64,000 bases of DNA. It comes from Moniliella sp. 'wahieum' (lineage: Eukaryota). Under the pieces are notes generated by a model. The model worked only from the letters and a program-made list of their open reading frames with translations, ran no database searches and was not told where the DNA came from. Below, one piece after another: positions 3,184-28,547 of the stretch (within the stretch, counting starts at the first letter, position 1; the number at the start of each line of letters is the position of its first letter). The stretch lies in assembly GCA_003971905.1 (NCBI GenBank), contig RSEE01000038.1:558001-622000 (forward strand). Direction: 5' to 3'. A program made the translations under genes and the position numbers.

Positions 3184-4128
3184 ATGCATGCGTGCGCGCC
3201 TCGACGCCAAAGGCACCGAGGCGAAAAGGGGAAAAAAGTGAGAGTGCCCCAGCGTCCAACCCACCAGGGGTGGCACCAGGGCCTGTTTGCCCGCCCATTT
3301 ACGGGGGCAGCAACAAAGGGTGACGGTCAAGAGTAAGCCCCGTCGTGTTACCGCTACGCGGCGACCGCATAACTGTATGAAGATGACCAACAAGCGGGAT
3401 CAGCACCACCCATTTCGTCTCACTTTGCTCGCCACCACCGCAGGCACAGAGCCGGACCAGCTCCTCCTGAGCAGGCACAGGGCTCGTGTCTTCGCTCACC
3501 TGCGCCCCAAACCAACAGGAGCTAGCCCAGCCCCAACACCCAGGGCAGTGCCCTCCAAGCAACCACGAACATGAAAGTCCATCATCAGATCCACCCCATG
3601 GATGGGCAGAGGGTGAGCGCACCAAGCCTCGGTCCCCATGATAGGGTTACAGAGTACCTGCCCGCAAGGGCATCTCAACCGCGCGCTTTCCGCTGCCGGT
3701 GCGCTTCCTCGTACCCATCCAAGAGACAGCCTAGAACAGCCACGTCCTCACGTGGAGCCCAAGAGGATGCAAGCAAAGCGACAGAGGACATGGGTCGCAC
3801 CCTGGTGCCCCTCCTGCGTGGGGGGGCAGCCAGACGTCACCGCACCGTCCGGGGACTTTCCCAACAGCGACTCAGCCACCGGAAGCGGCGAGGGGGGCTG
3901 CTAGTGCGGTCCTTTGGCCGTCACCCTTTGGTGAGCACCGCGTGCGTGGGCAGGCCCGGCAGCCCAGCAGGCCGCCAGACCCACGAGAAGGGTTTGGTGG
4001 AAAAGAAGAACGAAACGACCCCAGCGGCAACGCAGGAAAAAATACACGGTACAGCATAAACCCCGAGCGGAACGGCGTTGCGCGTATTCCTCCTCAGCTC
4101 TCCTCCACTGTCGCGCAAATTCATCACA
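3184..4128 (-). repeat. ~0.93-kb duplication containing the MRP RNA gene plus flanks (inverted partner ~26877-27822)
   Basis: Near-identity read by eye from ~3184 to 4106 versus the reverse complement of 26905-27822; weaker similarity continues ~20-30 bp further (GTGATG..TTTGCGCGA..GTGGAGG). Confidence 0.95.
3314..3930 (-). ncRNA. NME1: RNase MRP RNA, copy 1 (~617 nt)
   Basis: Reverse complement is nearly identical to 27078-27693. Contains CR-I GGGAAAGUCCCCGGAC, GCG-GAAAG-CGC (GARAR loop), CR-IV ACAGUUA, CR-V ACACGACGGGGCUUACUC and helices P1/P2/P3/P4/P19. Confidence 0.9.
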
Positions 4129-5334
4129 CGGTCACCACGAAGCGTGATGCATGGTAGCAGCACGACTGCAGCCGAGGGCGGGGGGCGCAAACGCGGCACG
4201 GGGGCAGCCCCCGCACACACAACTGTACACTTCCGCTTCGATGTATATAATGGTAACGCTGGCTGGGGGAAGAAGAAAGACATGCCGCCTGAGGGAGAGC
4301 ACGGGGCCAGTCGCATTGAAAGCCAAAGGAAGCTCTCTCTTTGGCGTTTGCGGTATTCCATCCTCTAGAGCGACCCATTTTTCGTTGAAAGCGCGGGGGC
4401 CAAAACAATGACACTCATAAAAGGCCTATATGTGCATGAGACCACATCCATCCAACTTCTCGCCAACACAATTAATTTATCTGGTTGGGGGGAAGAAGAA
4501 ATGCAGTGGGGGGGTGGGCGGAGGCGAGACGTGTGCTCTACCAAGGGGTAGCACCAAGAGGTGCAGTTACGAGAATTGGAATAGATGCGGATCTCAGCCG
4601 AGGGACTCGGGTAGAAAGGAAGTAAACTTTTCGAGCTATGAGAGGTGCATCAGGGGGTACATGACGATCCCGCAAGACTGTGCGGCTCTGTAGCGGCAGA
4701 ACTAGCTGCATTGACTCTTGGAATGGCGCGAGAATGTCTCAAAGGCTACCAGGGACCCACTCAAAAGTCGTTCTTCTCTGAAGCCATGAAACCAGGGTTT
4801 AATTATATACTGTGCCACATACACTGTAACCTAGATCCTTCCTCCCCTGGTTGGAAGCTACTAGGTATCCTGAAGAATCTCATTAATCTCAGATCTCATT
4901 GGAGATAGTTCAACGTACTCAACGGTCAACGGCAACGCGTCAACGCGTCAACGTTCAACGTTGAGTGTTGAGTGTTGAAGAGTTCAACGCTCATCGCTCA
5001 CACATGTTTGCCACGCTCGATCACATCCACTCGTGGTACATCCAAAGAAGCGAATGGGGAAAGCGGTCAGATCTCAGAGGGTTCTGACCTGCTGGGAACA
5101 CTATTGACTTCATACATTGAGTGGGTGGGGCCCAGATGTCAACAAACACCCGCTGTGTGCGATACTGAAGGGTAACAAGTAGACTGTGGGGCACTATAAA
5201 ACGTGCTTCTTATGTCTCGGCTTGGGCATTATGTTTTGTGAATGTGCTATGGATACAGTTGTCTCATTAATAGTAGATTTACGTGTTATGCATGTTATGG
5301 TTCAACGTGTTCAACGTTCATTGCGTTAAGAATA

Positions 5335-5599
5335 CTAGGAGACCACCGGCCTACGGCCCGGTCAGCTGGGCTTCGCCCCAGCTTGGTGCTTGGTGCTTGC
5401 TCGCCCACCGTAGCCACCGTTCCCCGTCGCCACCTTAGCCACCGGTCCACCTTCGCCACCGTAGCCACCGTTCCACGCTGGAGGATTTTATCACCCATGT
5501 GCATCCGCGGGCTGCGGCTGGAACGTGCCGGGTGGCATGCTGACCCTAGAATTTACGTAACGGGGAAAAACGACTGCCGCAAAAATATAGAAAGGGAGA
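5335..5599 (-). mobile_element. Non-autonomous Helitron, copy 1 (265 bp)
   Basis: On the minus strand it starts TC (5599), ends CTAG (5338-5335), has subterminal GC hairpins, sits between A and T with no TSD, and is near-identical to 25381-25648. Confidence 0.85.
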
Positions 5600-6233
5600 T
5601 GCAGTGGGCGGCTGCGCCTGGTGGGACCTATACATTTCAGCTTTCCCAGGCGACGTGCCACATGGCGCACAGGTCCAACGCCAAGCTCACTTCTGTCCAG
5701 GTCACACGGTCACGTGCCATCTGGTCGAATGCTTGATGGGCGCAAACAAGGCGGCATGGTTCTGACAAGGGCAGCGGGCGTACCAGCTCACTGGCTGGCT
5801 GTCCTGCTCACCTCCCGTTCCCTGCCTCTGCGTCTGGAAGACCGGTCGTCCTGCACAATCTGAGGCAGCAAACCATGTATAGCTGGCACGGGGTGCGCCT
5901 CGTTCACACTTGAAGGCAGCTAATAAAGCACTACAATGCATAGGGGAGAGAGGGTGGTGCTGGTAAGCCGTTGAAGCAATGCGATGAGGATGAGAGGGGG
6001 GAATCAAGGTCCGGGTGAACCGACATGTTGTACACGCGTATCGAGATACATGGAAGTCGTTGAGACGAGCAAGGTAAAGGACAGAAGGAGAAGTCGATAA
6101 GGAGGCAAGCCGCGTAGTTTTGGAAGGGAGCCGGGTTGGTCACGGGTCACGGGTCACAGGTCACGGATCACGACCGGCTCCCCACTTGGAGTTGAACCAA
6201 GAGTAGAGTGAGTGGCAGGTTCAGAGTGGCCGT

Positions 6234-7480
6234 TTACAGCGTCAGCTTCTTGGGCTGCTCCCAGGTGAACTCGGGGCGCCCAAAGTGCCGTACGAAGCGG
6301 TGGAACGGTAAATAGGCTTTTGCAGTTCGAGGTGGTGCACAATCACACCGGGCTTGAGGTTAAAGTTTTTGCGCACAATATCAACCAGCTCGGCATCCGA
6401 CTTGGACGACGTGCCGTACGACTCGACAAACACCGACAGCGGCTCCGCAACCCCAATCGCGTACGACAGCTGAACCAGCGCGCGACGCGCCAGGCCAGCG
6501 GCAACCAGCGACTTGGCCACCCACCGCGCCGTGTAGGCCGCCGAACGGTCCACCTTGGAGAAGTCCTTGCCTGAGAAGGCACCGCCACCGTGCGCGCCCC
6601 AGCCGTAGGTGTCAACGATGATCTTGCGCCCCGTCAGACCAGCGTCGCCCTGAGGGCCGCCAATCACGAACCGGCCCGAAGGCTGGATGTGGTAGATGGT
6701 CTGCTCGTCAATCAGGTGGGCGGGGATGACTTCCTTGATGATCTTCTCCAGAATCTCGGCACGCAGGTGCTCCGTCGTCACGTCGTCGGAGTGCTGGGTC
6801 GAGACGACAACCGTGTCGACGCGAACGGGCACCACCGCACCGCCATCCTTCTTGTACTGCACAGTCACCTGCGTCTTGGTGTCGGGGCGGAGCCAGGGAA
6901 GCGCGCCCGTCTTGCGAGCGACGGTCAGGGCCCGGTTCAGCTTGTGGGCGAGGGTGAGGGTGAGGGCATAAGCTCAGGCGTCTCATCCGTCGCATAGCCA
7001 AACATGATGCCTTGGTCACCAGCGCCGTGATCCTCCAGCGAGCCGTGGTCGAGGCCCTGGGCAATGTCGGGGCTCTGCTGCTCAATGGCAACCAGCACAT
7101 TGCACGTCTTGTAGTCGAAGCCCTTGGCACTGTCGTCGTACCCAATCTCCTTGATCGTGTCGCGAATGACCTTCTGGTAGTCAATCACCGCCTTGGTCGT
7201 GATCTCGCCAAAGACCATGACCATGCCCGTCTTGGTCGCCGTCTCGCAGGCAACCTTGGAGTTGGGGTCCTGGGCAAGGCAGGCATCGAGGATGGCATCG
7301 ACACTTGGTCACAAATCTTGTCGGGGTGGCCCTCACCAACAGACTCGCTGGGGGGGGACGAAAGGGGGGGGGTTAGCGGCGATGCGCGCAGGGACTGAGA
7401 GTGGATGGCGACGTACGAGGTGAAGAGGAAGTGGCCCTCGGCAGCTTGTGGTTGTGGAAAGAAACACCGTTAGCAGACAT
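6234..7480 (-). CDS. SAM2: S-adenosylmethionine synthetase, intron 7348-7416, several frameshifts
   Basis: [17 protein letters not shown] across the intron, [49 protein letters not shown]; ends WEQPKKLTL*. Confidence 0.97.
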
Positions 7481-8922
7481 GGCGGAGGACAGGCAGCGTG
7501 CTGGGCAGAGAGGGGAGGGGGACGGAAGAAGAAGCCGAGGGGAAGGGGGGGGGGGTGCCTTATAAACGCACGGGGTTTTTCTGCGTGCTGGCCACGTGCG
7601 GAGTCGGCTTGGGTTTTTTTGCTGGTGCCGGTGCGTTGGCCAGGAGGGAGGGAGTGATGAATGACGCGTGATGGTGATGGCATGCCTCGCGCGCCTTGCG
7701 CTCCCAGATCCCACCGGCCCTTCCAGCCCAGCCGACCCGCACGCGTCCGACTGGCGTCGTGCCGTGCAGTGTTCACAGTGCCAGCTGCCAAGGTGTCGCC
7801 GGGATGCATGATGCATGATGCACGATGCATGATACGCGGTGGGATGTTCGTGCGGCGCCGTGCGACCCGTGGGCGGCACCAGAGCCGGCGCCATTCAACG
7901 CGAAATGGCGTGCTACGGCAGGACGGAGCAATAGGCTGGCGGCCGATGGCACCACAGCGCACGACGCGGCTATGGGTCATCGATCATCGATCATCGATCA
8001 TGCACATGCATCATGCGCCAGCGTCTTTGTGCGTGTTGGCAGCGCTTATCGGTATCGCCTCCATTATCGCCCCGGCCTGCTTGGCCCGCCTTGGCTGTCT
8101 CCGTCCGGGTCGGCCGAGGCGCCGCCACGCACGCCCGCCGGCGTTTGCCGCGTATCACGTACATGGCCAGGTACCGGTAGTTGAACCGTTGTCCTTTTGG
8201 CAGCGGAACGCCACACGGTGATCGCCATGTGATAGCCGCATGCGTGTGACACACATGTGACAGGAGACGACCCTTGGGCCTGGGAGTGGCAGGAGCTACT
8301 CCTGAGAGGAAGACGATGTAATAGGCCCCCGTCGGCAGCGCGAGAACGACGATGGGCATACACAGGCATAGGCGAGCACCACGTGTCCAGAGCTGCTCAA
8401 CACCGGATGTTTGGATGAGGAGGGCGTGATGCTTGGCGCAATGCCGACCGGATGCTCTTCCGCGCTCAGGCGCTGATATACTCTACTCACCAGCTCATCA
8501 ACCCCTCCTCTGGGCCGTCCTGGGGCAACCAATCGCCCCGCACCCGCCCACGCCCGCGCACACCCGGCGCTGTCGCGTGTCACATGTCATGCACCATGTG
8601 TCTTGTGGCACGGGGGCTGTCGCCCAGCTGGTCGCGGTGGAGCAGCCGCCGACACGCTCCCAACGGCAGGCCCACCAGACAGATCCAGCCCTACTCATCC
8701 AGCCCACCTGCCCAGCCGGCATTCCGACGACTGTCTGCTGGCCCACTGGGTTGCGCTGCATCGCCACCTCCTCTCCTCCGGCCACCTCCCGTCTTTCCCA
8801 CGGGCTCCTCCGCCTCTTCATCATCCGCCTCTCCCGGGTGGACGACGCCTCTCTCTGCTGTCCATATATATAGGGCTCTCTGTGGGCGCGCACATCTGCA
8901 TCTCTCCGCCACGACCCACGCC

Positions 8923-9671
8923 ATGTCTTCGTCGCACTCCTCCCACGGGGAATCTCAAAGCTCAGACGCCTTGGTTCCTACCCCTCCGTTTCCCTTCCCT
9001 AAAGATCATCTTGCAGGAAGGCATCAAGCAAAGCCCTCTCACCACTCACCCTGGCGAGGACAGCAGCGACGCCACTCCTCATCTCCCTGCCACGGCCAAC
9101 GAGCGCCCTTCTCCCTCAATGTCCTCACCCCACTTCGCCTCTACCAACACGAACGGATCCAGCCACGACAATAGCACCCTCCCCCCCGCTGCCCCAGTGA
9201 GCTCAAACTGGAGCACCAGCATCGGACCGGCCTCCCAGGGGGACGGTATGTTGCCATCCCCATCAGAGGATTTGGCCACCTTAATCGACAGCCTCCTCGA
9301 CACGGATCCTGGTCCTGGGGTCTCTGCACCACCTGGCCTAGTGTCTTCCTTCGTCCCCGGTTCTGTTCCTCATACGCATCTCCCCCAGGCCCAATCGGCA
9401 CACCCCGCAACCAAAAAAGAGGACCAATAAGGGGCAAAAATCCGATCCCCCGCGGCGCCGGCCCAAGAGCAAGTACCATGCCTACATGTCAACTGCCCTT
9501 CCCTTGGTGAAAGCCCGGCACCCAGGCTTGCCCCACAATCAAGTTTTCCGTATCGCGGCGAACGAATGGCATTTCCACCCCAGCAACCCCAACCGCAGAG
9601 AGCTGGTGGTTGTGGATGTGGCACCGATGGCCAATCCTTCCACCAACAATTCCCTGGTGATTGACCGTTGA
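8923..9671 (+). CDS. Low-complexity protein with C-terminal YABBY/HMG-box-like domain (frameshifted)
   Basis: TATATATA at ~8865, ATG 8923. The frame at ~9417-9600 reads KRTNKGQKSDPPRRRPKSKYHAYMSTALPLVKARHPGLPHNQVFRIAANEWHFHPSNPNR, matching the YABBY/HMG-like pattern S.Y..(F/Y)M......K..HP...H...F..AA..W. Confidence 0.65.
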
Positions 9672-12471
9672 CCGTTGGACGTTTTGCCCCATTCCGTATT
9701 ATACCACCCTTATGGCTCGTGCTTATGGTCAAGGCCCATTTGGTCTTCTTCTTTAGGCCTAGTAAGAGTTTTTCAGCATATTTTCTCGCTGGGTTCTTGG
9801 TCACAACAGCAACCAAGCCTGGTGACATGTGTCCACTTTTTTCATGTCCCTCTGTATGTGTCGCTGGTTGACTTTGACCGTTTTCCACCACCTCATCCAC
9901 CACACCGTTGTGCGGTTTGCATCATCTTGGACGGCAATCATCAGTGCTTCTTTTCCAGGTTTCGTCGCCCCACCATTTCTTTTTGGCCTTTTTACATTCC
10001 ACCCGTATCGTCCTCTTCCTCCCTGATCTGTTGGTTTCTTGTACTTTTCACCCCCCTTTTTCCATCGCGCGGACGAGCAGTGGCGCAAACACCACAATAT
10101 AGTGTTTTGGTGATATAACTTATTGCCAGTCGCGTTGCGCCTCTCTGTGCGACTGATGGGGCGGGGTGGTGGCACCATATGGGTGTGCACACACATGGTT
10201 TCTATACCCCTCTCCTTCCTGGTATGTTTTGTTGTGTATCGTCTCCCGCAGAGAGATGGCGGGCTAGGAAGCATGGAAGTTCGCTTGCAAAGTGCTTGTT
10301 TTCATCCCAGCTCTCTATGGTGAGCCACTGGTATATACAGATGCCTTTCTGTTTGTTCGATTCTATTACGCCCTCGCTCGCCCCATTACAATATAGAAGA
10401 ACAGTCACGAAAAGAGCGGTGAGGACATGGGGGTGGGGTTCTCATATGTGGCGAAAGGGTTTGCCCAACACCGCCATGCACATCACTCACTGGCACAACC
10501 AGCCAACTATGTCGCTCACAGACCATGTTACCCTCGATATATGCAGGAAATTGTATCGCTGCCATCATGAATCCAAAGGGTATCCAGATCCGAGCAGACA
10601 CGGACTCGTCCCTCTTGCGACTTAGGACGATGCCTTGGCTGCCTGCAGAGGTACGAAGAGGGAGCCCTTCATGACTTCCTTCTTCTTCTCACCCGTGAGC
10701 GCCGCCCAGGCACCGTGGGAAGCGCCAGGATAGGATGCCCCACGGAACAAAATTCGTGCTGTGGGGTGAAAATGCGTATACGAGGCGGGAGAGAGAAAGG
10801 TGTGGGGTCGCCCCAGTTGGTCCAGGTGGGAACAGTTAATGTTGCGTCTGTTTCGTCGCCACCCCCGGTGCTTTTCCAATACATGGCACCCGTCGGGTGC
10901 CAGGGTAGCGAGCCGTGGGGGAGAGGATGAAGATGTAGTAGTAGTCAATTGATACAAAGGGGTACCGGTTGGTCATTTGGCTGGAACGGTTGTTGCGCTA
11001 TAGTAGACACAAAGGAGGAGAGGCGCAATTGGGGTGGTGGCAGGCTAAATAGATGCTTGGCCACTTTGGTCTACCAAGCGCATTTACTCATACTTGATGG
11101 CCACGTCAAGCTGAACAGGATGGGAGTGACGAACCCGGTTTTGTGATCGGAACGCAGCGACTTGGTCTCGGTCGCTTCTTCTCGCATTGCTTTCCTGTGC
11201 CACACGGAGAACAATCTGCAGAAACTTAAGGGGCCGAAACGGCTGCTCTGAAGGTGGAGGGCGAAACCGAGGTTGTGTCGGAGGAAAAGGAGTAGAAGAG
11301 GAGAGGCTCAAGCCGAGGCGGCAGTGCAAGAGGCGGGAAAGTCAGCTGACGACAAGGAGATTGTTGTCCAGGCTACGTTCTCGGAAATACAGGCAGTCCA
11401 GGATGAAACCAAGGAGGAGATAAGGCGGAGAAGGCGACCAAGGAGGCCAAAAGGAAGGACAAAGGCGCCAAACTGCCTTTTCCCAAGGGAGTGCGTCCTC
11501 TCTCCCACGTACCTTATACCGCTTACTTCCTCTTTGTTCCTCCCCCCTTGAAGTCAGGTGGACAGCTTGCTCGGCGACTCTTTGTGCATATATGCCTGCC
11601 ATTCCTGCCCGCACCGAGACGAGGCGACCGGGCCCGGGCTTCCGCAGTCGCACCATGACACGGCGGCAGGAAGCGAGAAGCGTAGTTGCGTCCGGCGAGG
11701 CATCTAACAAGGACGCCAAATACGAGACGGACATTGGCTCCCGCTTCCCTGCCGCACAGGGGACGAGCACAAGCTGTAGTGGGTGGTACCAGTCCAACTC
11801 ACTGCGCCCGCGTGGAGAGGTGCGCAAGGTGCGGCAGATGGGGACAGCCTCGTCGCATCTCGATCGATTGAGGCGTTCGACCTATCGCGTGCATTGGTCA
11901 AACAGCGAGCTGATCGAGCGGCAGAGCACCAATGTCGCCTGGCTTTACAAGATGCGGCACGAACAGCAGCCGACACACCAAGCGCATGCTCACCAAGCGC
12001 CAGACGCTCACTGCCTTGCCGGGTACACGGGCGCTGGAGCGCACCTTGCCGTTGCGCCAGCTATGCCTGGACGCGGCCACGGCGTAGACGGAGCGGCGCT
12101 TGCACCGCAACCCATGGAGGCCATGGCGGCCATGGCAGCCATGGAAGCCAACAGGCCGATGGACATAGGCGGATGGAGGGGCGCGCGCTGCGCACAGGGC
12201 AGTGTGGGCAGGCTGCAATGGCCGGGCATAGATCGCTGCCGGCGTCACGCATCACGCGTCACGCGTCACGCGTCATCGATCATCGGCCCCATCATGCATC
12301 ATCCATCCTGCCATCGGCCAGCTATCAGCGCTCAGCCGATAACCATCCTGGCGCAAGCCGCCCCCACCGCCTCCATCTTTCTCCAAGCCACCACCGCCAC
12401 CGCCACCACCATCACCGCCACCGCCGCCGCCACCACCACCTCACTTGCCCGTTCCTACACGGCCGCGCGCC

Positions 12472-15400
12472 ATGGACCGCCAGCCTGTCCTACCTGGTGT
12501 CCCCCCGTTCTGGTCCAGCGCCGATACGTGTATGGCGCAGCCTCACTTGCCCTCACAGCCCATCACGTTATCCTCCAGCTCGACCCCGCCTCCAGCTCTG
12601 ATTCTGGCACGCCTCCCAGCGCCGACGTGACCCCTACAAAATCCCCTGCGCTTAGTGTCCCGCACACTGCCGACGAACCGCGTCAGCGTATCTTCGGCGC
12701 CCGCCCAGGCGAGACGATTCCATTTTCCGTGCACCTGATTGGCCATGTCACCCGCCTGCCCAGCGTCCCTCTCCCGCATGCCTATGCCGCCACTCTTGCT
12801 CCATCCTTCCAGTTCCGAGCATTCCCCCTCTGGATTCAACTCAAGGACTTTGAGTCGCTCACACTCTACTTTGGCAGCGACCAGGTCTGCCACGACGTGT
12901 ACCGATCCTTGCGCTCCTGCACAGTTCTCAAGCACATCGAACAACTTGCTGCTTTCCATCCGGACGTGTTTCTAACAAAGGAGAAACCGAATTTGAATTT
13001 GCTCCCGCTTTCATCACCCCCGTCTGCTGCTCCCACCGATGGTTCTGAAACCAGTCTCTCTCCACCCGGATGGCTCATCTACGATCCCAAGAGGGAATTC
13101 GAACGACAAGGTGTCTGGACCCGTACCCGTGCATGGAGGACGACGACGCTCAATGAGACCCATACTGTAAGTTTGGCTCCCAATCCGGCCGGACACGTTG
13201 TCTTCCACCTTTCTTCATGAGATCTTCTAATCCCTTGGTTCGATTCACCAGTTCTGCCCAACATACCCCTCGTTGTTGGTCGTTCCCTCAAGGATCAGCG
13301 ATACGACTCTGCAGCATGGCGCCAAGTTCCGGTCCAAGTCGCGGCTCCCTGCGCTCACCTACCTCCACTGGGCCCACTTGGCCACCATTACCCGTTCGTC
13401 CCAGCCATTGGTGGGACTGCGGTACAGTCGTAGTGTCCAGGATGAAAAGTTGGTCGATGCCATCTTTTCGTCTCATCTTTTTGCTGGGGGAACACACGTT
13501 GGTGCGCCTCCCAACGGGACAGCACCTTCTACGAGGGACGAAACACACATTACTGACTCGTCCTTGGGGGGATTTGACGCAATCGACTCGTCAGAGGCAC
13601 CTACGTCGTTAGGCACTCAGCACATTTACGGAGCCAGGACCAACAATGTGATTATCGATGCCCGGCCTACAACCAATGCCTATGCCAATCATGCAAAGGG
13701 AGCCGGGAGCGAGACGATGGACTATTACCCTGGCTGCCGCAAGGTCTTCCTTGGGATCGACAATATCCATGTCATGCGGGACTCGCTTAAGGCAATTACT
13801 GAAGCTTTGAGCGACGCTGATGTTGCTCCTGGCTTTGGTGCCGAATCTAAAAATTCCCTACCGTTCCTTGATCCAGGGCAGGTCAAGCGCTCGGGCTGGC
13901 TGAAGCACATTTCTACTCTGCTTGAAGGGGTAGGCAAGATTGTACGAACAGTGCATGTGGAATGCGCCCATGTCCTCATTCATTGCTCTGATGGATGGGA
14001 CCGCACGTCTCAGCTTTCGGCAGCAGCCCAGGTATGCTTGGACCCCTACTTTCGTACCTTCCAGGATTTGCGTTTTGATTGAGAAAGACTTTGTTGCGTT
14101 TGGCCATCGGTTTTTGGATCGGACTGGCCACTTGTCGCACACCCACTTCTTTGACGACAAGTACCAGCCCCGCCTGAGCCCGAGCCGGACTCGGACTCGC
14201 GCAATGGAGGGTTTGAGCCGGCCAATGCCGCCTCAGCGCTATGGGGATTTACCAAGTCGGTGGCAGCCAACTTACGGGGGCCCCACGACCAAGAGTCGGT
14301 CACGCACCTCAAAGAGATCTCCCCTGTCTTTCATCAGTTCCTCGATTGCATTTATCAAATTCACCGCCAATTCCCAGAACGATTTGAGTTTTCCACTGGC
14401 TGGCTCGTTGAGTTGCAACGAGCGCTTCACGAGTGCACCACAGGCACCTTCCTCTTTAACTCGGAGGCTGAGCGACTCCGCCTCCGTCACCAGTTTCCTG
14501 GGGTCAAGAGTGTGTGGGACGATCTTCTTCTCGCCCACCACCAAGGCCGTATTTGCAAATCCACAGTACGATCCCCAGTTGGATGACATTAAGCGACCCA
14601 AGACGGATATGGGCGTGGTGATGCCCGACGGCAAAGATGTACGATTTTGGCCTGCGTTGTTTCGTCGCTCAGATGAAGACCTCAATGCCTACATCGATTT
14701 GGAGCAGGCTGCTCAGGCAAGGCCGCCTCCCAGCGGGACGCTCGACGCAAGCGGCTCGAGCAAAGATGGAGGCGGCTGCGCAAAGTCAACCGGACCCAGG
14801 CTCAGGGGGTGCAGGAGCGGTCGAAGATGCCCTAACCAGAAGGACGAATACGCAGGGTTGACTTATCGTCCGTACCAAACCAAGCCCAAAAACCACAGGC
14901 TCTCACACATCTTGTCCCATTCCCATGCCAATGGGTCGTCCGACAACGGAACCCCATCCGGCCCCTTCCCACTCAGACGAGCAGGGTTGGGACCCTGCGG
15001 CGGCAGGGAAGAGGCAGGTGCGTGCCCTTTGGTCTGCCAGTAGAGGGTGGCTGTTCGGTGATCAGCCAGGCTCTGCCGAGATGGACAGTCCTTGGGATGC
15101 CCGCCCATCATCAAGCATTAAGGATGCGTCCTTGGAAGCTCCCCCGCTGGTCGCGTCAAAATCATCTCCTGGGCATGAAAGAAACGATAGCACTTCCGTG
15201 GGAGGCAACGTTTGGTCCGACCCTCTGTCTGACCCCCCGACTGACCCTCCTCACCTGACCCGCTCAGCGCCGGACTGAAAGAAATACATCTCCCCTCCTC
15301 ACCTCTCGCACCCTTCCCCTCCCCAGCATTGCATCCATCAGCCCACCACCCAGGCGACTACGCCTTCACGCCGTTCCCCTCCCCCTTCCTCTTCCCGTGC

Positions 15401-17268: not shown

Positions 17269-17930
17269 ATGAAGTTTGTCGCTATTTGCTCCCTCGCCGT
17301 TGCCTCGATGGCCGCTGCATCCTCTCTCATGGCCCCTGGGGAAGCCCGAGCGGCTCACAAGGCTCGCCACTCCGACCTCTCTCTCGAGAAGCGCTACCGT
17401 GTCTACTCGGGCGGCCAGGGCACATACTACGATGGAAGCAAATTGGTACGTCTCACTCGCCGTATGACGGATCTGTCGGCCTTCCCCCGTTCACGATGGT
17501 TCCCCATACCATCAATAGTGAAGCTAGTGACTAGTGACATGCGACAGGCCAAATGTTCTTTGCTTGCTGACACAATTTTGGCTTCTGACTTAGGGTGACC
17601 CCGCTTGTGGTGGCAGTGCCCCTTCCGACAGCAGTATGTCTGTCGCCGTTCCTGCCGGCTCTCCTGCCCGCTGTGGACAATGGGTGCATCTCCAGTTAGT
17701 ATTACTTTCCTTGTTCTCTTTGTTTTTCTTGCCGGTGGGGTCTGCTGACTGCTTTTGTTCCACGTAGTTACAATGGCAAATCCGTCGCAGCTAAGGTGGT
17801 GGATGAATGTGGAAGCTCGTGCAAGTCTCAGTATGACGTTGACATGACCAAGGCCGTCTTCCAGGAGCTGGCTGACTTGTCTGTCGGTGTGCTCAAGCCC
17901 CTCAAGTTCCGAGTCCTGGACGACAACTAA
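17269..17930 (+). CDS. Small secreted RlpA-like double-psi beta-barrel (expansin/loosenin-like) protein; introns 17446-17593 and 17695-17767
   Basis: Signal peptide MKFVAICSLAVASMAAA, Kex2-like EKR. Spliced product reads GQGTYYDGSKLGDPACG...VAV...CGQWVHLHYNGKSVAAKVVDECGSSC...DVDMTKAVFQELADLSVGVL. Confidence 0.85.
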
Positions 17931-19355
17931 GGCGGCCGGCCACTCGCATCTCTTTTCCCACTCATTGGCGCATCGCTAGCTGTCTTCGTTGATCTCCACA
18001 TCCTGCATGCAACGGCTTCGGTATTGCCGTATTGCTACTCGTGCATCTTACAAACCTTCACACCTCCCTCTCTGTCGCTCCTTACACGGCGCTCTTTTGC
18101 ACCCCTCCCCTTTGGTCTTTCCTTCTCCCGGCGAGTAGGGCTAATATGGCCAGCTCACCCGTTCTGACCACACCACATTCCCTCCCCAGTGTCATTACCT
18201 GTCCCCTCTCAACCTCTCCGGCACCGGCGGCCACTTTGTGGGGACCTCCGCATCTCGTTCCTTTTCTACGTTTCTGCACAGTGCCTGCCATCATTCCAGT
18301 TGGTACTCTTTCCTCCTGCTTATGGTAGACATCGGCCACGTGTGGAATTTTTGCTCTTCGCTCCCTTCACATCCCTGCAACCCGGCGTTGCTGGTTATGA
18401 CTGTTGCTTTAAGTGCAATGCACTGCCATGCTTCACCCGTTGTGCAAACCTCTGTTATTGGGTAACCTTTCGACGGATGTCCATAGTGGCTGTACCCTGC
18501 TTCCCCGTGCGACTCGATATATAAATGCAAAACGTCATCAGCGACATGATGTGTGGCGCTTCGTCCACCACAGGCTCGCTCATCCGAGCTTTGTCAAATC
18601 CCTCCCCCCCCCCTCCCCCCCCATCGGGAGCCCAATGGCGTCACTGGTACCCAGGTCTGGACCCCCTGCCACCCGTTATTCATTTCCAAACGACATGTGG
18701 CTGAAGCGAATACGAATGAGCATGGATTTTTGGTGGACATGTGAGCGATGACCTTAATGACCCTTCTCCAATGAGGCTCTCTATCACTTTACCCGTCTAC
18801 AACACACTCCTATAGCCTACGTATCGTCAGGACGAATGGATAGCCGCCCTGCCTCTCCCCCTCCAGAGAAACAGTTAGTGGTTATTACGCTAAACCAGAG
18901 CGAGAAGACTAGACACAGCTTCGCCGAAACAGCATTGTATTTTTGCTGTGAGAAGGGCAAAGGGGAGGGATCGAATGGCGGCACCAAGAATGTGTTCAAG
19001 TGTGTGTATATTTGGGTACCAATGAGTGCGCAAGAAAGATGATGGCCCAAGTAGGAGACGAGGATTCAAAAAGGAACAGTAATGTAGTCATGGGTACGGA
19101 GGGGGTAAAAGTGCGGAGAGAGAAAAAGTGAGGTGGGGCATCATGCACCGTAAAAAGCCATAAGGTCCCAATGGGAACGCAATTATCGTAGAATAGTAGT
19201 TGTTGTGAGAGATGGGGGTTGTGGATCGAACGAGAGGGAGGTATCATGGGATGGACGGTCACCGGTCAACGGGCAACGTTCACATCCCCATGTAAAGCGC
19301 AAAAAGTTGGGGATTAGACGGGACAAACACAAGCGTGGGTGTGTCAGGGTCAGGC

Positions 19356-20918
19356 TCAAAAAGGAGAGAAGGGTGGGGGCATTCTAAAGGATGGCGTTGG
19401 AGCATTTGTAAAAGTGGGGTGAAAATTGTGGCAAGCCCAGTCACGAGCAAATGGAGCGGCCCCAAGGAAAACACGGCGACTGTACTTGTGATACACGTGC
19501 AGGTTGCACATTTCGGGCTGGACAAGCCGTTCAAGAATCAAATTGCAGCAGGGACCAATTGTTCTTGAACATGACCAGAATAGTAGATGAACGCATTGTC
19601 CCAAACCTCGCCCACTCAACCAGAATTCGGCGCGCTAGGAACATAGACATGGCCGCGATGGTTCGTGGGCGGACCCGAAGGAAGCGCTCATCCACCAAGG
19701 CAAGCTCAGAAAAAAACTTGGCCAAGGTTCGGGTATGGGCATCATACTCATCTGCCTTGCTGATGCGGCGAAGGAAGGGGTAGGGTGTAGTGTATCTCGA
19801 AACGTCAAAGTTCAAAGCCTCGAGGATGAGCTTCACCCTTGATAACCTCCTCCCGGTTGCACGCCCCGCTACACACGTACACCAGATCGTCCAGAGGTGG
19901 AGGCAGCACCTCTTCAAATTTGGACGCGATCATGAGGGAGGTTATTGCAAGCAACTGAAGCTTAGCCAGTGCCACAACCCGCAGAGAAAGGAAGCGGTCC
20001 AAAATATTGGTCGCATTGAACAACGTTTCGGGACAGAGGCGAAAGCGATCATGAACCAAGACAAGCCAGTCTATTACTTTGCTCCGTGCCGCCGCATCCA
20101 CCTCACATTGCTGCTTAAGGTAGTTGCATTGGGCATCGTCCGCTTCTCGCATTCTCCCAGGTACTGCAGGATTTCATCCGCATATTCAGCCATCATGGTA
20201 ACGTCGCGTGCCTCCACCACATCGACCCCTGCCTGTGCCAGCGCCTCTCTTCAGCCGCTACACGGGGAGAGAGGCATCCTTCGGCCACGAGCGCGGCGCG
20301 GGCATCAGATTGGGCTTGAATCCGAGGGCGGAGCTCATACCAATCGTAATGCATCTGCACACGCAGCACCTTGTTCATCGCGGCCAGCTCAAGCTCGTGG
20401 GCAGGCACAATACATGATCTGGGTCGGTCATTCGGAGAAACTCTAAATCGTCCGTGGCACCGTCAACATCCTCCTCTTCCGTCCCGTCGCTCTCCTCGGC
20501 GCGAGATAGATCAGCGAGGGGTATGCCTTGCTCAGAGAGTGCATCCGGGCGGGGCAGTGTCTCGTTCCAGGCTGGTGCGCCGATTGAAATAATGGGCTCC
20601 GACGTGCACTTGCTTTCATATCCCGTCGGTGGTATGGAAGCCCCTTTAAGCATGTCTGAAGAGACATACCAGTTCTCGTCCGCTTCCTGCCTGTCCGCCC
20701 ACTCGTTCGTCTTGGGCTTGAGGATTGAGTGGACACGTACCGCCGCGTCAGACAGTATCGCCCGCCTGCTTGGGAAGGATCTGCTTCGCTGCCCTGCTCG
20801 CCCGTGGAATAATGGCAGATGTGCGGGCCCAAGACGCAGCCGGGGCAAGCTTGGTACGCTCGGGGGGTAAGAAGGCAGCGGCGGAGGGGCACGTTTCAGG
20901 CAGTGCGGCGGCGGACAT
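19356..20918 (-). CDS. B-type (G2/M) cyclin, frameshifted
   Basis: MMAEYADEILQYL, cyclin box RSKVIDWLVLVHDRFRLCPETLF...LDRFLS...KLQLLAITSLMIASKFEE, TPYPFLRRISKADEYD, C-terminal VYHKYS...FARDWA. Start approximate. Confidence 0.92.
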
Positions 20919-22961
20919 GGTGGAGGAGGACACCGGTCTGTGCAAGACACTAGGATTCGGTCATTAACGTGTTTCAGCTCCTGGTGTTGGAGGGGGGGAT
21001 CGAACATACCACTGACGAGGGCGTGCGGAATGAGACGCGTGGTGCGTAGACAAGGAGCGAGGTGCGAGGTGCGAAACGGCAGGGATGGTGGGTCCTGTCG
21101 GGCAGGGTGCCTCCACACTGGGTGAGTTGGGCCGCAGCGGTCCAGACTTCGGGTCGCGTCCAGGCTCAGGTATCAGTGGGGGAGGTGAAGAAAAAACAGA
21201 AAGGGGGCGCAGGCGGGGCGCAGGAGGGTTGGCTGAGCTCAGCAACGGAAGGCGTGGCCGCCGTGCTCGGGAGCGGATGGGAGAGGTGGGGGAGAAGGGG
21301 ACGGGGAAGGGGGCGGGGAAGGGACGGAGGAGGAAGCAAAGGAAGGTCGGGAGCAGCGCGGCTCCCACGTCGCCGTGGGAGGATGGTGGGGTGGTGGAGG
21401 ACCCTCGCGCAGGTCGGCTAGTACGCTCAGTCGGACTGATGGCTTGGCAATGCGTTTGTCTGCGCAAGCAAGCCGGTGCAATTTCAACCCGCTGTACATA
21501 TATAGGGGGCCGCATTCTGGGCCCATTGCGGCAGGCGGTGCTGGTGGGTGGCTGAAGCGAATAAGCTCCCGCTCTTCGGGCCCCACCCAGCACCCCCTTT
21601 CTCCCTCTCTCAAGCGGCAACGCACGCCAGCTAACGAACGTGAAGCTTCTGCACGCCTGGAGCGTTAGACGCTCAGTCATAGTCCGCGCCTTGTTGCCCA
21701 GAGTGCTTTGCAAAACTGAGTACTGAAGCTTCAAGCTTCAAGCTTCAACCGAAGCAAGTGCACACAGGACAGGGTCTCTGTACACTACGGAAGCATCAGT
21801 GCGATCAGTGGTGGGCGGTTCGTTCAGTACCAGTACGAGGACCAGTGGAGATATGTGATTAAGGATCCAGATTCAAGCTTCAAGCTTAGAGTGTGGCAAC
21901 ATGCCGTCTCATCACCGCATTTTGCGTCGCGACGACCTTGTTCTATCGGCAGAGGGCAAAAGGGTACAGTGTGTCAGCTATATATAACCTTCGCCGCCCT
22001 TCTCCGCCCAAAAAGCTCATTGTATAAACAGAGGCTATATGCCATGGTTCTTCTCTCTCGTTTCTAACGCGGCAATACTGTATTTGCCTCTCCGTCCTAG
22101 CCATGTCCACACTATCATAACGGAGTTGCGTAGGACTTCCTCACAATCCCCCCGCCACGATCATCGTTCATGTGAACGATTGCGCCCCGCTCTGATCATC
22201 TTAACATGCTTCCCACATCCCACGTATATGTATACATTCATTGTCTCGTCAGTCCATCAGAAGGCCTCTCAGCATCAGGCCGGCCACGACAAAATTCAGC
22301 TCGAAGGAACTTATCTCAAATCACGTTGTTAGAGACAGGGATAACTTTGTAGGTGTGGTTGTCCTACCATCGAGGTTCCATCAGGCCTCAGGAGAGACCA
22401 GGGTCTCAAGATCTCTCTATGGTGTGTACAGTTTCTCAGGATACTCTAGGGGTTATTGTCATATAGTTGGACTGAGATCTCGCTCCCATTTCCAATTTCT
22501 TCTTCGTCCTGAAGACGCCGCCCTTTCCCTGTTTCTTCCACTTCGCACCATGTCCTCTGCTCTTGCTTCTTCCCCCACGAACTATATTGCTACATAGTCC
22601 CTTGACCTAGTCTCGGCTCTGGTCTCCCCTCGCCAGACTTTTTGACAAGAATTTCCGAGTAGTCATCACAACCAATAAGAGCTCTAGTAGTATGTACTAG
22701 TGATGAGTGTATATAGAGAGACATAGAGGCAAGGCGGTATAGCTTAAAAGCCAGCTATAGGGTACGCAGGGAGTATACAATAACCCCAACTCCTATATAT
22801 AGTAAGTACTTCTTCTGTAACACACAATGTTGGGCATATGGATTACGGTTTGAAAGAAAGGCCACATGGTGAGTCCCAAGCAGAAGAGGTGAAGGGGTCA
22901 CGGGGTGACTCAAAGATTAGGACATTTCCATCACATGTCCGGGAATGGAAGAGTGTACATT

Positions 22962-24307
22962 TCACCAAAAAGGAAACCAGTGAATGTTGTAGTCTAACAA
23001 TCCCGGATGCACATTCCACTTGTCGAAAAAGGTGGTGGTCATGTTAGGTTTGCCAAACAGCACTTTGACGCCAGCGAGGACCGAGTTGCTGTACTCCGCT
23101 GACCGATCATCGCCATTTTGCTTGTAAGCCCCAGGACCATCGGTGGCTGGCCCAGCTGCCCAGGAGCCAAGAGCGGTCTGGAAGGTGTAGGGCAGCTGAG
23201 TAGCCTGTAAGTACTTGTTCAGCTTCGCCTGGCCTCCGTCCCTGGGGAACGGAAACCAGGCATGGATCCAGGTGTGGGAGGCGCGAGCGATCGCTTGCCA
23301 ATTGCTCGGGTCATTGCTTCCTGAGCGGGCAAGATTGGACTGTATCCAGCAAGCAACGTGCACATTGATCCACGGACGGAACAGGTCGTTGTTGCTCAAC
23401 TTGCCCAGGTTCAACGGCTGCGATGACTGGTAGTCCGTCAAGGCGCCCGAACCCTCTCCCTCGTTGACGTTCGCCACTTGCCAAGAGAGCGTATGCTGCT
23501 GGACATTCGCATAATTCTTGAACAAAGTTAGCCCGCGGGTGTCGTTCCCGGGTGTGACCTGGAGAAGGCCCAACGCAGGGCCATCCGCCTTCTTGCTGTT
23601 AAAATCAGACTCGACCTGAATCTCAGCGAGGATAAAACGAGCGGCCGCACGCGCCGGGATTTCGTTCCAGTACCGTGCCGCTGCACTCCAGACAGCATCA
23701 ACAGTCTCATTGAATAAGCTGTCCTGGAGCTGTTCCTTGGCGTTTGCCCAACTCATGATATTGCTCAGATCAGTCCGCAACTCCCCTTTGCTGTACCCAT
23801 CGTGGGGCCAGGCAGTGCCTGTTGAGGAAGGAGAAGGCGAGGCACTACTCGAGGACGCAGTGCTACTGGAAGAGCTCCATGATTGGGCAGGTGTGGTGGA
23901 GGTAGGCGTGGATGTTATCACCATGGTAGACGTGGTGGGTGGGGGTTGCATGCATGTGGTGGCAATTTCCATGGTTTTGACCTTAGGTCCACTGTACCCA
24001 CCTGTAGCCCCACAGGGCATTTGATGCTGGCACCACTGAACTCTTCCGGACCGTTGATATCTTCCCATCCGTCCTGGGGAAGGGGCTTGGAAACAGCTTG
24101 AGATTGAGCAAAGACACGGGGGTAGAGTTGGGCAGAGGCGGCAGTCGTACTGGCTGGTGGGTTCACGTTTGCTTGTGCGGGAATGTTGGTGGCAGTAGGG
24201 GCCTGGATGGGCAGTGCGCCGACATTTCCGCACAGATGGGCGAGGAGGCAGACAAGGAGGAGACCAACCAGGGGACGAGGGTGCATGACGACAAATACGA
24301 CCGGCAT
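22962..24307 (-). CDS. Secreted protein with Ser/Thr linker and lysozyme-like (GH23/SLT lytic transglycosylase) domain; one frameshift near 24020
   Basis: Hydrophobic signal (LVGLLLVCLLAHLCGNVGA), S/T-rich linker, ILAEIQVESDFN (catalytic ES motif), ALGLLQV (GLMQ-like motif), LFRPWINVHVA. Confidence 0.7.
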
Positions 24308-25380
24308 ATAGGCTTCAGGCAAGATGGAGGGTGTGATGGGGCGATGTGCACGCAGGGGGAAAAGTTCCAGACCGGCTGGATGTTGATGGGGGTAAGTAGG
24401 GGATGAGGAAAAAGGAAGGAGAGCCTGCTCTCGAGCACCAACCGGTGGTGTAGAGGTAGAAGGACGGGAGGGGAGGGTGGTTGAAGCGATGGAGGGGGCG
24501 CCAAACAGAGGGCAAGGAGACGCAGATCAGCTTATAAGAAAGGGACGGCGTAGCAATAGTTCTAAAGGGTTTTGGGGGCAGCAGTCACTAGTCACACGTC
24601 ATGCGCCTACATCACCGGTGACTAATTTAACTTAGGCTCTTATAGAGCTGGTGTGTCTGATAAGCAGCCCGAACTAGGCCACTTGCCGCATCATACATGC
24701 ATCATGCATCATGGTGCATCACAAGCACCACGGGACTCTGTCAAGAATTGGTCATGTCATTAAAGTCATTAAATTGCTTGGGACGGGTATAATTCGTAGA
24801 TGGGGTCTCAACTTGTCACATACATATGCTCTGATGCACTCGAGGCAGCCCCAACTACATCCGGCTATAGACCCATCCTCCACCCTTGCCTGTCAGAGCA
24901 AGGGTGATGGCCACGAGACCCACGTTTTGCCTGCTGGCGCTCTGAAGTGATTGAGTGATCGGGGGGATGCATGATGGAACGTGTGGTGTGGTACTAAAAC
25001 CGGGCATGTATACATCGGACAAAAGGTGTTGCACCCGTGGTGGTGTTTTATACTTGGACGGTAGCTCTTGCTCAAACGTATACCAGACGGTCCCAGTAGT
25101 ACTAATAGTACTCGACGAGTACTCAGGTACTCAGACCTAATACGCTCAAACTAGTACTAGCGTACTACTCAGAACTCCTCAGCACCCACAACGTTTTCAT
25201 GCAATGAAACACCCATCACCTCTGGACAGATTGTTGCGCTCCTCTATCAGATTTCAGAATCACTTTTCTCCTCTCCTAGCCTTCTTTCACGCCGGTAACC
25301 ACCCTCTCTCCTCTTTCCTTGCCTTGTGTCCTCAGTAATCATTATTGTTTTCTCACCTCCTATTAACGAAAGCGCAAATA

Positions 25381-25648
25381 TCTCCCTTTCTATATTTTTG
25401 CGGCAGTCGTTTTTCCCCGTTACGTAAATTCTAGGGTCAGCATGCCACCCGGCACGTTCCAGCCGCAGCCAGGCGGATGCACATGGGTGATAAAAATCCT
25501 CCAGCGTGGAACGTGGCTACGGTGGCGAAGGTGGACCGGTGGCTAAGGTGGCGACGGGGAACGGTGGCTACGGTGGGCGAGCAAGCACCAAGCACCAAGC
25601 TGGGGCGAAGCCCCAGCTGACCGGGCCGTAGGCCCGGTGGTCTCCTAG
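25381..25648 (+). mobile_element. Non-autonomous Helitron, copy 2 (268 bp)
   Basis: A|TCTCCC...CTAG|T. Hairpins AGCTGGGGC-GAA-GCCCCAGCT (25598-25618) and ACCGGGCC-GTA-GGCCCGGT (25620-25638) lie just before the CTAG. Confidence 0.88.
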
Positions 25649-26535: not shown

Positions 26536-27077
26536 ACAGCTCGCCGATTTCCTTTAGGCATGAAGAATGACGTACGGCTGTCGCACGCTACACCCAGTAG
26601 TCGCCCCCTCTTGGCTTTTGTCATGGGGCGGCAGACTATGAGGGGAGCTTTTCATTGCCTCAAAATTGCTTGCAATCCATGATCCTTGGTCTTGGGCTGG
26701 CTTAAATATTTAGGGGGAAATGTGTTTGTAATTGTGCTTGTAGCCAAGAGGACAGCAATTGCTCGCGATTCCAAGGATTTGGTCGTATTCAGCAGCATCC
26801 CCGTCGCCGCGGCCTACCGTGGTGGCAAGCAAATCAGGATCAGGGCTGAGCCCGTGCGGTGATCAATATTCGGTCGGTGATGGTTTTGCGCGAGGGTGGA
26901 GGCCGGAGGAGAGCTGAGGAGGAATACGCGCAACGCCGTTCCGCTCGGGGTTTGTGCTGTGCTGTGTATTTTTTCCTGCGTTGCCTCGGTGGGCCGTTTC
27001 TTCTTTTCCACCAAACCCTTCTCGTGGGTCTGGCGGCCTGCTGGGCTGCCGGGCCTGCCCACGCACGCGGTGCTCAC

Positions 27078-27693
27078 CAAAGGGTGACGGCCAAAGGACC
27101 GCACTAGCAGCCCCCCTCGCCGCTTCCGGTGGCTGAGTCGCTGTTGGGAAAGTCCCCGGACGGTGCGGTGACGTCTGGTTGCCCCCCCACGCAGGAGGGG
27201 CACCAGGGTGCGACCCATGTCCTCTGTCGCTTTGCTTGCATCCTCTTGGGCTCCACGTGAGGACATGGCTGTCCTAGGCTGTCTCTTGGATGGGTACGAG
27301 GAAGCGCACCGGCAGCGGAAAGCGCGCGGTTGAGATGCCCTTGCGGGCAGGTACTCTGTAACCCTATCATGGGACCGAGGCTTGGTGCGCTCACCCTCTG
27401 CCCATCCATGGGGTGGATCTGATGATGGACTTTCATGTTCGTGGTTGCTTGGAGGGCACTGCCCTGGGTGTTGGGGCTGGGCTAGCTCCTGTTGGTTTGG
27501 GGCGCAGGTGAGCGAAGACACGAGCCCTGTGCCTGCTCAGGAGGAGCTGGTCCGGCTCTGTGCCTGCGGTGGTGGCGAGCAAAGTGAGACGAAATGGGTG
27601 GTGCTGATCCCGCTTGTTGGTCATCTTCATACAGTTATGCGGTCGCCGCGTAGCGGTAACACGACGGGGCTTACTCTTGACCGTCACCCTTTG
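27078..27693 (+). ncRNA. NME1: RNase MRP RNA, copy 2 (~616 nt)
   Basis: P1 CAAAGGGUGACGG/CCGUCACCCUUUG; P2 GACCGCA(27097)/UGCGGUC(27638); P3 CUAGCAGC/GCUGUUGG; CR-I GAAAGUCCCCGG (27148-27159) pairing with GGGGCUU (27666-27672); GARAR loop 27318-27322; CR-IV ACAGUUA 27631; P19 GCCGC-GUA-GCGGU. Confidence 0.92.
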
Positions 27694-28547
27694 TTGCTGC
27701 CTCGTAAATGGGCGGGCAAACAGGCCCTGGTGCCACCCCTGGTGGGTTGGGCGCTGGGGCACTCTCACTTTTTTCCCCTTTTCGCCTCGGTGCCTTTGGC
27801 GTCGAGGCGCGCACATGCATGCTTCCTTGCCCATTGCAGCCATTCTACCAGAAATCATATATACCTTCCGTACAACTGCTCATATACATGTTCTGACCCA
27901 AATTACAGCCGAAGAGGAGCGTACGCTGACAGTGGTGTTATTGTTGGATTGCTTCGCGAGTCTCGCCCTTTTCTTTGTTCTTGTGCCATAACCCCATGTT
28001 TTTCCTTTGCTTCCGCTGCACCCACGATTATCCGACCTTGTCTGGACGCTGCTCCTCACCGCCTTATTCCCTTACCATGACAAATGGGGTTTTGTGGTCC
28101 CAAAAGATCCATAGTCTTTTCCTACACGCCAACCACAGGTATTATAGACACCCTTGGACCGCAGCTAGCTTAACCTCCTCCCTCCCCCTCCCCATCACGT
28201 AGGAACACACATCGGGCATCCATAGAACGCTACCATCACACAGTCCACCATCCCTTATTACTCCAAGGACGCCGTGCGCGCCCAACTAATTTCTAGCCTT
28301 TAATCCGTGCTGGTGTTGGGTGAGACCGCGGGAATATGGCAAGTGATCCTGACTGATTCGTTTCGGCTCGGGTCATCCCTTGTTGACGGCTTGACGGCGG
28401 TAAAAACGCCTTCTCAATCCCCGCCAACGATGTCTATACGCCCCAGCGCAGGACACCGCAAGTCCCAACACCAAGTCTCACTATGAAAGAGTAGACGCAG
28501 AGTGGGGATTGCGTGAGTGCGTATGGGAAGATGTGGGGGGGAATGGA

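Follow-up and report, generated by a model that had tools for sequence, protein, structure and literature searches.

Two inverted copies of the RNase MRP RNA gene in Moniliella sp. 'wahieum': identity, homogenisation and associated inversions

Why should one chromosome carry two near-identical, intact-looking genes for the RNA of ribonuclease (RNase) MRP, an enzyme that cleaves precursor ribosomal RNA? The question is raised by a stretch of 64,000 nt from Moniliella sp. 'wahieum' (GenBank assembly GCA_003971905.1, contig RSEE01000038.1, here C38, positions 558001-622000), called the window below, in which two such loci stand in opposite orientation. The assembly comprises 69.5 Mb in 223 contigs, and the host is a basidiomycete fungus; the best named relatives of the myotubularin encoded in the window belong to Ustilaginomycotina (54-55%). 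RNase MRP is essential (PMC3737539). Its RNA is encoded by a single gene in most species, with several copies in plants, five uncertain copies in sea urchin and one copy plus pseudogenes in humans (PMC1796607), and each of five yeasts has one copy (PMC5033589, Table 1). Both sources agree with the preliminary description of this stretch, which had called the gene single-copy in yeast and human. To judge from the sequence, either copy in the window most likely supplies RNase MRP with the same RNA of about 616 nt, so that the two would be interchangeable.

Two RNase MRP RNA genes in the window

By every sequence feature tested, both loci are RNase MRP RNA genes and members of the Rfam family RF00030, as had been proposed. 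In the window, the Rfam covariance model matched positions 27084-27686 (+) with an E-value of 8.6e-14 and positions 3321-3924 (-) with an E-value of 1.4e-13, both above the gathering score of 50 bits (scores and feature coordinates in Table 1). A P1 helix is predicted between 27078-27090 and 27681-27693 with a pair probability of 0.99, and it coincides with the gene ends given in the preliminary description. The conserved regions CR-I, CR-IV and CR-V and the GARAR hairpin, at 27315 in the right copy and at 3693 in the left one, occur once each in either copy, as had also been noted. The GAAAG loop is closed by a 3-bp stem. The CR-IV core, ACAGUUA (27631-27637), is followed by U and the P2 strand, and the published consensus is AnAGUnA, 0-3 nt 5' of the 3' strand of P2 (PMC1796607). 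According to the Rfam alignment, the motifs and the strands, CR-I and CR-V can form P4, while P1 and P2 close domain 1; the P2 and P4 pairings were read from the sequence, since the energy model misses P2 and the P4 pseudoknot. None of 20 shuffled sequences was as stable as either gene. All five P19 pairs were invariant, so that covariation was uninformative.

The GARAR loop on P8 is specific to MRP (PMC1796607, PMC3737539), and its presence argues for MRP rather than RNase P. No RF00009 row appeared at either window locus in a listing that hides overlapping clan matches, and a search of the whole assembly with RF00009 returned no match, although the control sequences likewise gave none. Compared with the members of RF00030, which include yeast NME1 and human RMRP, the window genes have the same P1, P2, P4 and P19, CR-I, CR-IV, CR-V and GARAR loop. 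They share an enlarged variable domain 2 with other fungal MRP RNAs, and their length of 616-617 nt is unremarkable, Candida MRP RNAs measuring 907-2226 nt (PMC5033589). What sets them apart from the usual MRP gene is the presence of two intact inverted copies per chromosome.

The two genes lie within inverted arms of about 950 bp that are 96.6% identical over 955 columns (blastn). The shared block reaches beyond the gene by about 200 bp on the upstream side and by 120-130 bp on the other, close to the flanks of about 170-200 and 130 bp estimated earlier. Over the 163 bp upstream the window copies differ by 5.5%, and farther out their promoters are unrelated. Over 616 aligned bases the genes themselves differ by three substitutions (27179, 27265 and 27273) and one 1-nt indel, few indeed, as the preliminary description had stated, although it listed only two substitutions. 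None of the three falls in a conserved region. The energy model predicts 27265 and 27273 to be paired and to become G-U, and 27179 to pair at the end of a helix in one copy (P 0.5) but not in the other. Of the differences, earlier judged structure-neutral, two of the three substitutions stay paired, but not through the pairs then cited. The helix of CCAUGUCCUC with GAGGAC[A/G]UGG has a pair probability of 0.0 in either copy. Imposing it on the fold takes about 16 kcal/mol, and only 4 of its 10 standard pairs survive in the homeologous fragment described below. The G absent at 27370 in the right copy is present in the other three copies of the assembly and in all three public-run contigs, and its absence is probably a sequence error. 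Both window copies look intact at the sequence level.

Copy number, haplotypes and homogenisation

Contig C9 is a near twin of the window region, with 7 substitutions in 671 positions of RPL1, 15 in 1243 of the S-adenosylmethionine (SAM) synthetase gene and 20 in 1633 of NUO51. Contig C50 is a diverged homeolog, 68-95% identical where alignable, and has its own twin, C2. The Peptidase M24 gene is 98% alike on C50 and C2, and its copies on C72 and C123, contigs that we infer to belong to the window's set, are 70% identical to these. We read C38/C9 and C50/C2 as two haplotypes of each of two diverged chromosome sets, a reading that rests on few genes. Genome-wide, RF00030 gave four full-length matches: C38 and C9 each carry a pair with the same inverted arrangement, the C9 copies scoring 54.3 and 41.9 bits. 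Intact-length genes thus number four and are confined to C38 and C9, while the chromosome sets apparently also number four, and the pair on these contigs appears to be the sole intact source of MRP RNA found in the assembly. Because the pair recurs on C9, the duplication is not the misassembly of one locus, a possibility that the preliminary description had named as a refutation.

Between positions 26860 and 27830, 33 alignment columns divide the four copies two against two. The 18 upstream columns (26860-26908) follow the inner spacer and separate left from right copies identically on C38 and C9; on the sequence pattern, the duplication predates the split of these haplotypes. Nine further columns (26927-27585) follow the chromosome, and the last six (27813-27829) follow the outer flank. 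In the core (26909-27812), 9 of 9 such columns unite copies that lie on the same chromosome, and not one unites copies that share a position. This pattern indicates one old duplication whose cores were homogenised and whose flanks were exchanged, gene conversion being the presumed mechanism. Within C38, 3 of 616 gene positions differ, and between haplotypes 15-22 of 607-614. By pairwise distance the arms are closer within the chromosome for C38 (0.5%) but not for C9 (3.5%), where the differences between the copies are mostly singletons, some of them clustered like sequencing errors. The alleles at 27265, 27273, 27567 and 27585, the last two being among the nine grouped columns, recur in public contigs of relatives and therefore are not mere errors. 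Since the copies have been homogenised within the chromosome, neither their near-identity nor any structural neutrality of their differences is a sign of separate selection on each, and under gene conversion intactness alone does not prove that both are used.

Frameshifting indels were observed in the SAM synthetase gene (6242-7308), RPL1 and NUO51. They point to an unpolished long-read consensus, in which gene calls will be fragmented. Since conserved genes carry many single-base indels, indels between the MRP copies are to be distrusted.

Contigs from three public runs of one study, none of them recorded as RNA, span RPL1, MRP and NUO51, and most of the non-coding bins have no coverage. Depth on MRP was 162, 38 and 118 in the three runs, compared with up to 11 on NUO51. 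The contig of run X1 has 12 other letters and 5 gaps in 533 positions and ends at 27689, at the end of P1. This depth fits abundant unspliced MRP RNA in close relatives, whichever copy it may come from. In the explanation favoured below, both window copies would be transcribed. An RNA run (X13) contributed three reads in all and none on MRP, too few for evidence either way. A second, deeper contig of run X1 matches only the 3' end of MRP (27602-27689) before continuing into unrelated sequence, and probably represents the MRP RNA of another fungus.

Nested inversions and a broken homeolog

The two haplotypes differ in the order of the genes around the pair. The gene that follows RPL1 and MRP is the gene of an RNA-recognition motif (RRM) protein on C9 and NUO51 on C38. 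That the exchange took place inside the block follows from the six informative columns at its far end, which agree with the outer flank. On C50 the order is SAM synthetase, RPL1, MRP fragment, Peptidase M24 gene and NUO51, and the left flank is joined to the side of the lysozyme-like gene. An 8-bp direct repeat is whole around the left copy on C38 and split between the two arms on C9. As the C50 order resembles that of C38 and the repeat is split on C9, C9 is the flipped haplotype. The repeat was spotted after the fact, with a chance background of about 0.5%, and no such repeat surrounds the right arm.

The second inversion lies within the first. Two copies of a Helitron-type element of about 268 bp, with a TC start, a subterminal hairpin and a CTAG end, bound the inner segment on C38, which carries SAM synthetase, myotubularin, cyclin and lysozyme-like genes (Pfam). 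Helitrons insert at A^T, and C9 has exact empty A^T sites without target-site duplication. For this element, 49 matches were retrieved from the 40 of 363 candidates that were scored; 19 of the 21 ends examined read CTAG followed by T, and two of three genome matches to Helitron_like_N exceeded the cut-off. A canonical non-autonomous Helitron1 likewise has 5' TC, 3' CTRR (here CTAG) and a subterminal hairpin, lacks target-site duplications and occurs in many dispersed copies (PMC5148889). The empty sites on C9 and the C50 order agree in placing SAM synthetase next to RPL1 and in linking the lysozyme-like side with the left flank; C38 is therefore the haplotype in which the inner 19.8 kb between the elements was inverted. 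Both inversions are seen at the level of the assembly. From the sequence, their net outcome resembles an exchange of two unrelated spacers of 1.2 kb, and recombination between the haplotypes would be expected to be suppressed over some 23 kb. The upstream neighbourhood of RPL1 also differs between haplotypes, as the Helitron stands 244 bp from its start on C38 only. Two simpler origins of the layout were considered. A single large inverted duplication reaching from the Helitron to MRP was rejected, because the spacers are unrelated (their alignment scores equal those of shuffled sequences), and capture of the MRP gene by a Helitron was rejected because no Helitron ends were seen by eye at the block edges.

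In the diverged set, the MRP gene beside RPL1 is truncated. On C50, similarity stops near window position 27515. The C2 fragment breaks off at the same place, a truncation point common to both contigs; 52 nt of its P1/P2 are missing and its CR-I is damaged. Between C50 and C2 the fragment differs at 18 of 371 positions; the neighbouring genes differ at 15 of 1028 and at 26 of 1390, and the upstream sequence at 65 of 789. The C50 fragment keeps CR-I and GARAR, and both fragments read GAGAG in the loop. Over the shared part of the RNA, 50 of 114 predicted pairs are unchanged, 9 carry two-sided and 17 one-sided changes, and 38 are broken. The truncated pseudogene (L067:846-1306 on C50; L068 on C2) is joined to the upstream region of the Peptidase M24 gene, which in the other set lies elsewhere, on C72 and C123. 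Genome-wide searches for the 3' half, with two patterns and a DNA query, gave four matches each, all on C38 and C9, and nhmmer and covariance-model searches over 74,403 bases of selected stretches gave a best E-value of 0.53. A split or trans-spliced MRP RNA in the diverged set was rejected because no 3' half was found in these searches; the model search being limited to those 74,403 bases, a strongly diverged 3' half may still lie elsewhere in this set. A spliceosomal intron at 27509-27636, prompted by the end of the C50 similarity at a splice-donor-like motif, was also rejected, because the public contigs are unspliced (X1 and X2 cross the stretch and X3 enters it, with no joint listed) and because the stretch pairs in long helices in the energy model (P 0.97-0.99).

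The site of the left copy has a different history. No trace of MRP or of the RRM gene was found at this site on C50, and in the genome search matches to the RRM gene above 55% identity were confined to C38 and C9, so that this gene was apparently lost from the diverged set. The C50 site lacks MRP, the C50 fragment stands beside RPL1 and the left arm is bracketed by the 8-bp repeat; of the two copies, the left one is therefore probably the more recent insertion. Alternatively, loss at this site in the diverged set may account for the same arrangement. The homeologous RRM and left-MRP position is filled on C50 by the 1,3-beta-glucan synthase gene FKS1 (L063:4549-8000 and L071:1-2324).

Competing explanations and comparable systems

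We propose that a unit of about 950 bp, comprising the MRP gene, its upstream region and the T-run, was copied once from the RPL1 site and would have landed 23 kb away in the opposite orientation before C38 and C9 separated. The two arms would since have recombined with each other by non-allelic homologous recombination. Most events would have ended as gene conversion, keeping the copies on one chromosome alike, and at least one as a crossover that inverted the 22.7 kb between them on C9. Independently, the two Helitron insertions on C38 would have recombined and inverted the inner 19.8 kb. The homeologous MRP gene of the diverged set is a truncated pseudogene. We regard this explanation, taken as a whole, as probable.

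Several observations weigh against it. On C9, 21 of 606 positions distinguish the two copies, a divergence as large as that between haplotypes; these copies show apparent lesions, namely one C missing in CR-I of the right copy and a G>T change in P1 with clustered changes in the left copy, and the latter scores 41.9 bits, under the cut-off of 50. Between haplotypes the gene diverges by 2.4-3.6% and is conserved no better than coding genes (1.0-1.2%, and 3.8% for the RRM gene); it falls at the low end of the spacer range (2.4-7.2%). The assembly is rich in indels (over 1669 columns of NUO51, 10 gaps in C38 and 16 in C9), and a misjoin at the repeat or consensus mixing within a haplotype may have contributed. 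The public runs come from relatives and cannot separate the two copies. Only a single inversion is seen at the MRP repeat, and the outgroup contig C50 carries rearrangements of its own.

What retains the pair is a further matter, and two answers seem possible, each with no more than a tentative claim. The MRP gene of the diverged set may have been lost, whereupon the need for RNase MRP output may have led selection to fix and maintain the second copy. Such dosage compensation is compatible with the proposed history, to which it would add a selective cause, and the broken homeolog lends circumstantial support to the dosage effect suggested in the preliminary description. In the diverged set, each haplotype holds just a 5' fragment, and four intact-length copies face four sets, a number estimated from the Peptidase M24 gene. 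The duplicated block could plausibly represent a complete transcription unit, and the enzyme is essential (PMC3737539). Since the fragment keeps CR-I, GARAR and changes within predicted pairs (9 two-sided and 17 one-sided among 114 pairs), it would have remained functional during much of the period that followed the divergence of the sets, but the 38 broken pairs speak against this reading. Moreover, duplication may have preceded the loss, an order that needs no compensation; other single genes were lost or moved (the RRM gene is missing from the diverged set, where FKS1 occupies the left-copy site); and ploidy rests on few genes, with the set of C72 and C123 assigned indirectly. Alternatively, and with a similarly modest claim, the second copy may be silent or dispensable and remain intact merely through conversion from a working gene. 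The site pattern indicates conversion, the upstream 163 bp differ by the 5.5% given above with unrelated promoters farther out, and the gene shows no excess conservation between haplotypes. Nevertheless, the homogenised stretch is exactly the gene, its upstream region and the T-run, every core motif is kept in both copies, and the pair persists in both haplotypes. A stronger combination, somewhat less credible than either of these, is that in a doubled genome, of hybrid or ancient polyploid origin, the local duplication restored the MRP copy number after the other set broke its gene, that selection for dosage keeps the pair and conversion its identity, and that the gene incidentally hinges a recurrent 23-kb flip/flop. 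If true, the locus would be a natural test system for dosage limitation by RNase MRP RNA.

It is improbable that the duplication, the chromosome-wise identity or the inversions arose from misjoins or consensus mixing. Single-base indels are frequent in coding genes, both inversions terminate in repeats and the G missing at 27370 is probably an error. However, the pair stands on two separately assembled contigs that have 18 position-specific upstream columns in common, the empty Helitron sites of C9 are unique sequence and agree with the outgroup, the four alleles mentioned above recur in unrelated public contigs, and the repeats, at 270 and 950 bp, are small in relation to contigs that measure 0.6-1.1 Mb. 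Early specialisation, in which the RNAs would differ in substrates or expression, had been suggested at the outset and is the least credible of the readings, with very little to recommend it. Three substitutions exist, and the promoters differ upstream of 26909. None of the three lies in a conserved region, two stay paired as G-U, and none recurs by position on C9 (0 of the 9 informative core sites). The copies are homogenised within each chromosome at all nine informative sites, and as conversion erases divergence, only regulatory differences remain possible.

The closest parallel to the proposed history is the 24-kb flip/flop of Saccharomyces chromosome XIV, in which a homogenised inverted repeat re-inverts the segment between its arms (PMC9731477). 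In both systems a gene-bearing inverted repeat with arms about 23-24 kb apart is homogenised within strains or within the chromosome, alleles occur in opposite orientations, and conversion, presumed in the case of the MRP pair, is accompanied by occasional crossover. In Saccharomyces, however, the repeat measures 4.2 kb and carries sporulation protein genes, inversion has recurred over 17 million years, and NME1 lies inside the region as a single gene (PMC9731477); here the repeat is shorter than 1 kb and is the essential RNA gene itself, and one flip is seen. For the inner inversion, the Galileo inversions are a comparison, which reportedly arose by recombination between two inverted copies of a transposon; here a Helitron inversion is nested inside the MRP-bounded segment, making two independent inversions between haplotypes. 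Homeolog loss is known after hybridisation or genome doubling. The diverged set resembles such cases in having lost or broken genes (MRP and the RRM gene), but the gene concerned is that of an essential non-coding RNA, and its loss coincides with a local duplication on the other set.

No published inverted or duplicated MRP gene pair in a fungus was found in the openly licensed literature. Each mechanism is already known, and their combination on an MRP gene was not found in the literature searched, which makes the locus a case study and not a new kind of system. Its value lies in the fact that the dose effect of an essential, usually single-copy RNA is hard to test. Two intact copies per chromosome stand beside a broken homeolog, and the three substitutions are markers that allow allele-specific assays. 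A sub-kilobase RNA gene also appears to act here as a recombination hinge, with a Helitron-bounded inversion nested inside.

Table 1. Coordinates of the MRP gene pair and associated features in the window
Feature	Position	Strand	Remarks
RNase MRP RNA gene, left copy	3314..3930	-	617 nt; RF00030 57.8 bits; fold z -7.8
RNase MRP RNA gene, right copy, adjoining RPL1	27078..27693	+	616 nt; RF00030 58.5 bits; fold z -7.7
CR-I (5' strand of P4)	27148..27157	+	left copy 3851-3860; Rfam alignment and motif search
GARAR pentaloop GAAAG	27318..27322	+	left copy 3686-3690
CR-IV, directly 5' of P2 3' strand	27629..27637	+	left copy 3370-3378
CR-V (3' strand of P4)	27666..27676	+	left copy 3331-3341
T6 run, putative terminator	27769..27774	+	left copy 3232-3237; within shared block
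Inverted repeat, left arm (upstream region, gene, T6 run)	3183..4127	-	blastn
Inverted repeat, right arm	26877..27825	+	blastn; haplotype crossover within 26909-27812
8-bp direct repeat, 5' edge of left arm	4146..4153	-	possible target-site duplication or microhomology
8-bp direct repeat, 3' edge of left arm	3183..3190	-	partner of repeat at 4146..4153
Segment between MRP arms, inverted on C9	4128..26876		22.7 kb; ancestral order from C50
Left spacer	4128..5334		unrelated to RPL1-side spacer; lengths 1206 vs 1227 bp
Non-autonomous Helitron-type element (A/TC ... hairpin CTAG/T)	5335..5599	-	absent from C9
Second Helitron copy	25381..25648	+	98% identity to first copy; RPL1 start lies 244 bp downstream; not on C9
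Inner segment inverted between Helitrons	5600..25380		19.8 kb; C9 empty-site junctions, C50 order
RRM protein gene, downstream of left copy	2028..3089	-	Pfam PF00076; presumably RBM18
RPL1, ribosomal protein L1 gene	25892..26560	+	Pfam PF00687; frameshifted in assembly; indels vs C9
NUO51, NADH dehydrogenase 51-kDa subunit, outer marker of right copy	28548..30269	-	Pfam PF01512, PF10589; C50 match

Further features were noted in passing. An open frame of 450 aa at 22962-24314 encodes an apparently secreted Ser/Thr-rich protein, 73% conserved on C50, with weak lysozyme- and transglycosylase-like Pfam matches under the cut-off (E 0.0025 and 0.0054). C50 differs from the window by an inversion of about 30 kb, one end of which adjoins a tRNA gene (48094-48197; C50:81108-81212). 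Two tRNA genes with apparent introns were detected at 35179-35259 and 48101-48196; their ARAGORN identities vary between runs and are unreliable, and by eye we take Arg(ACG) and Ile(AAT) to fit better. A pattern scan of metagenomes retrieved three loci with 21-nt matches only and no Rfam match. A hexamer array of about 27 GGTTGA units occupies 61509-61673, 10 kb from the contig end, and similar runs are present on C72 and C123.

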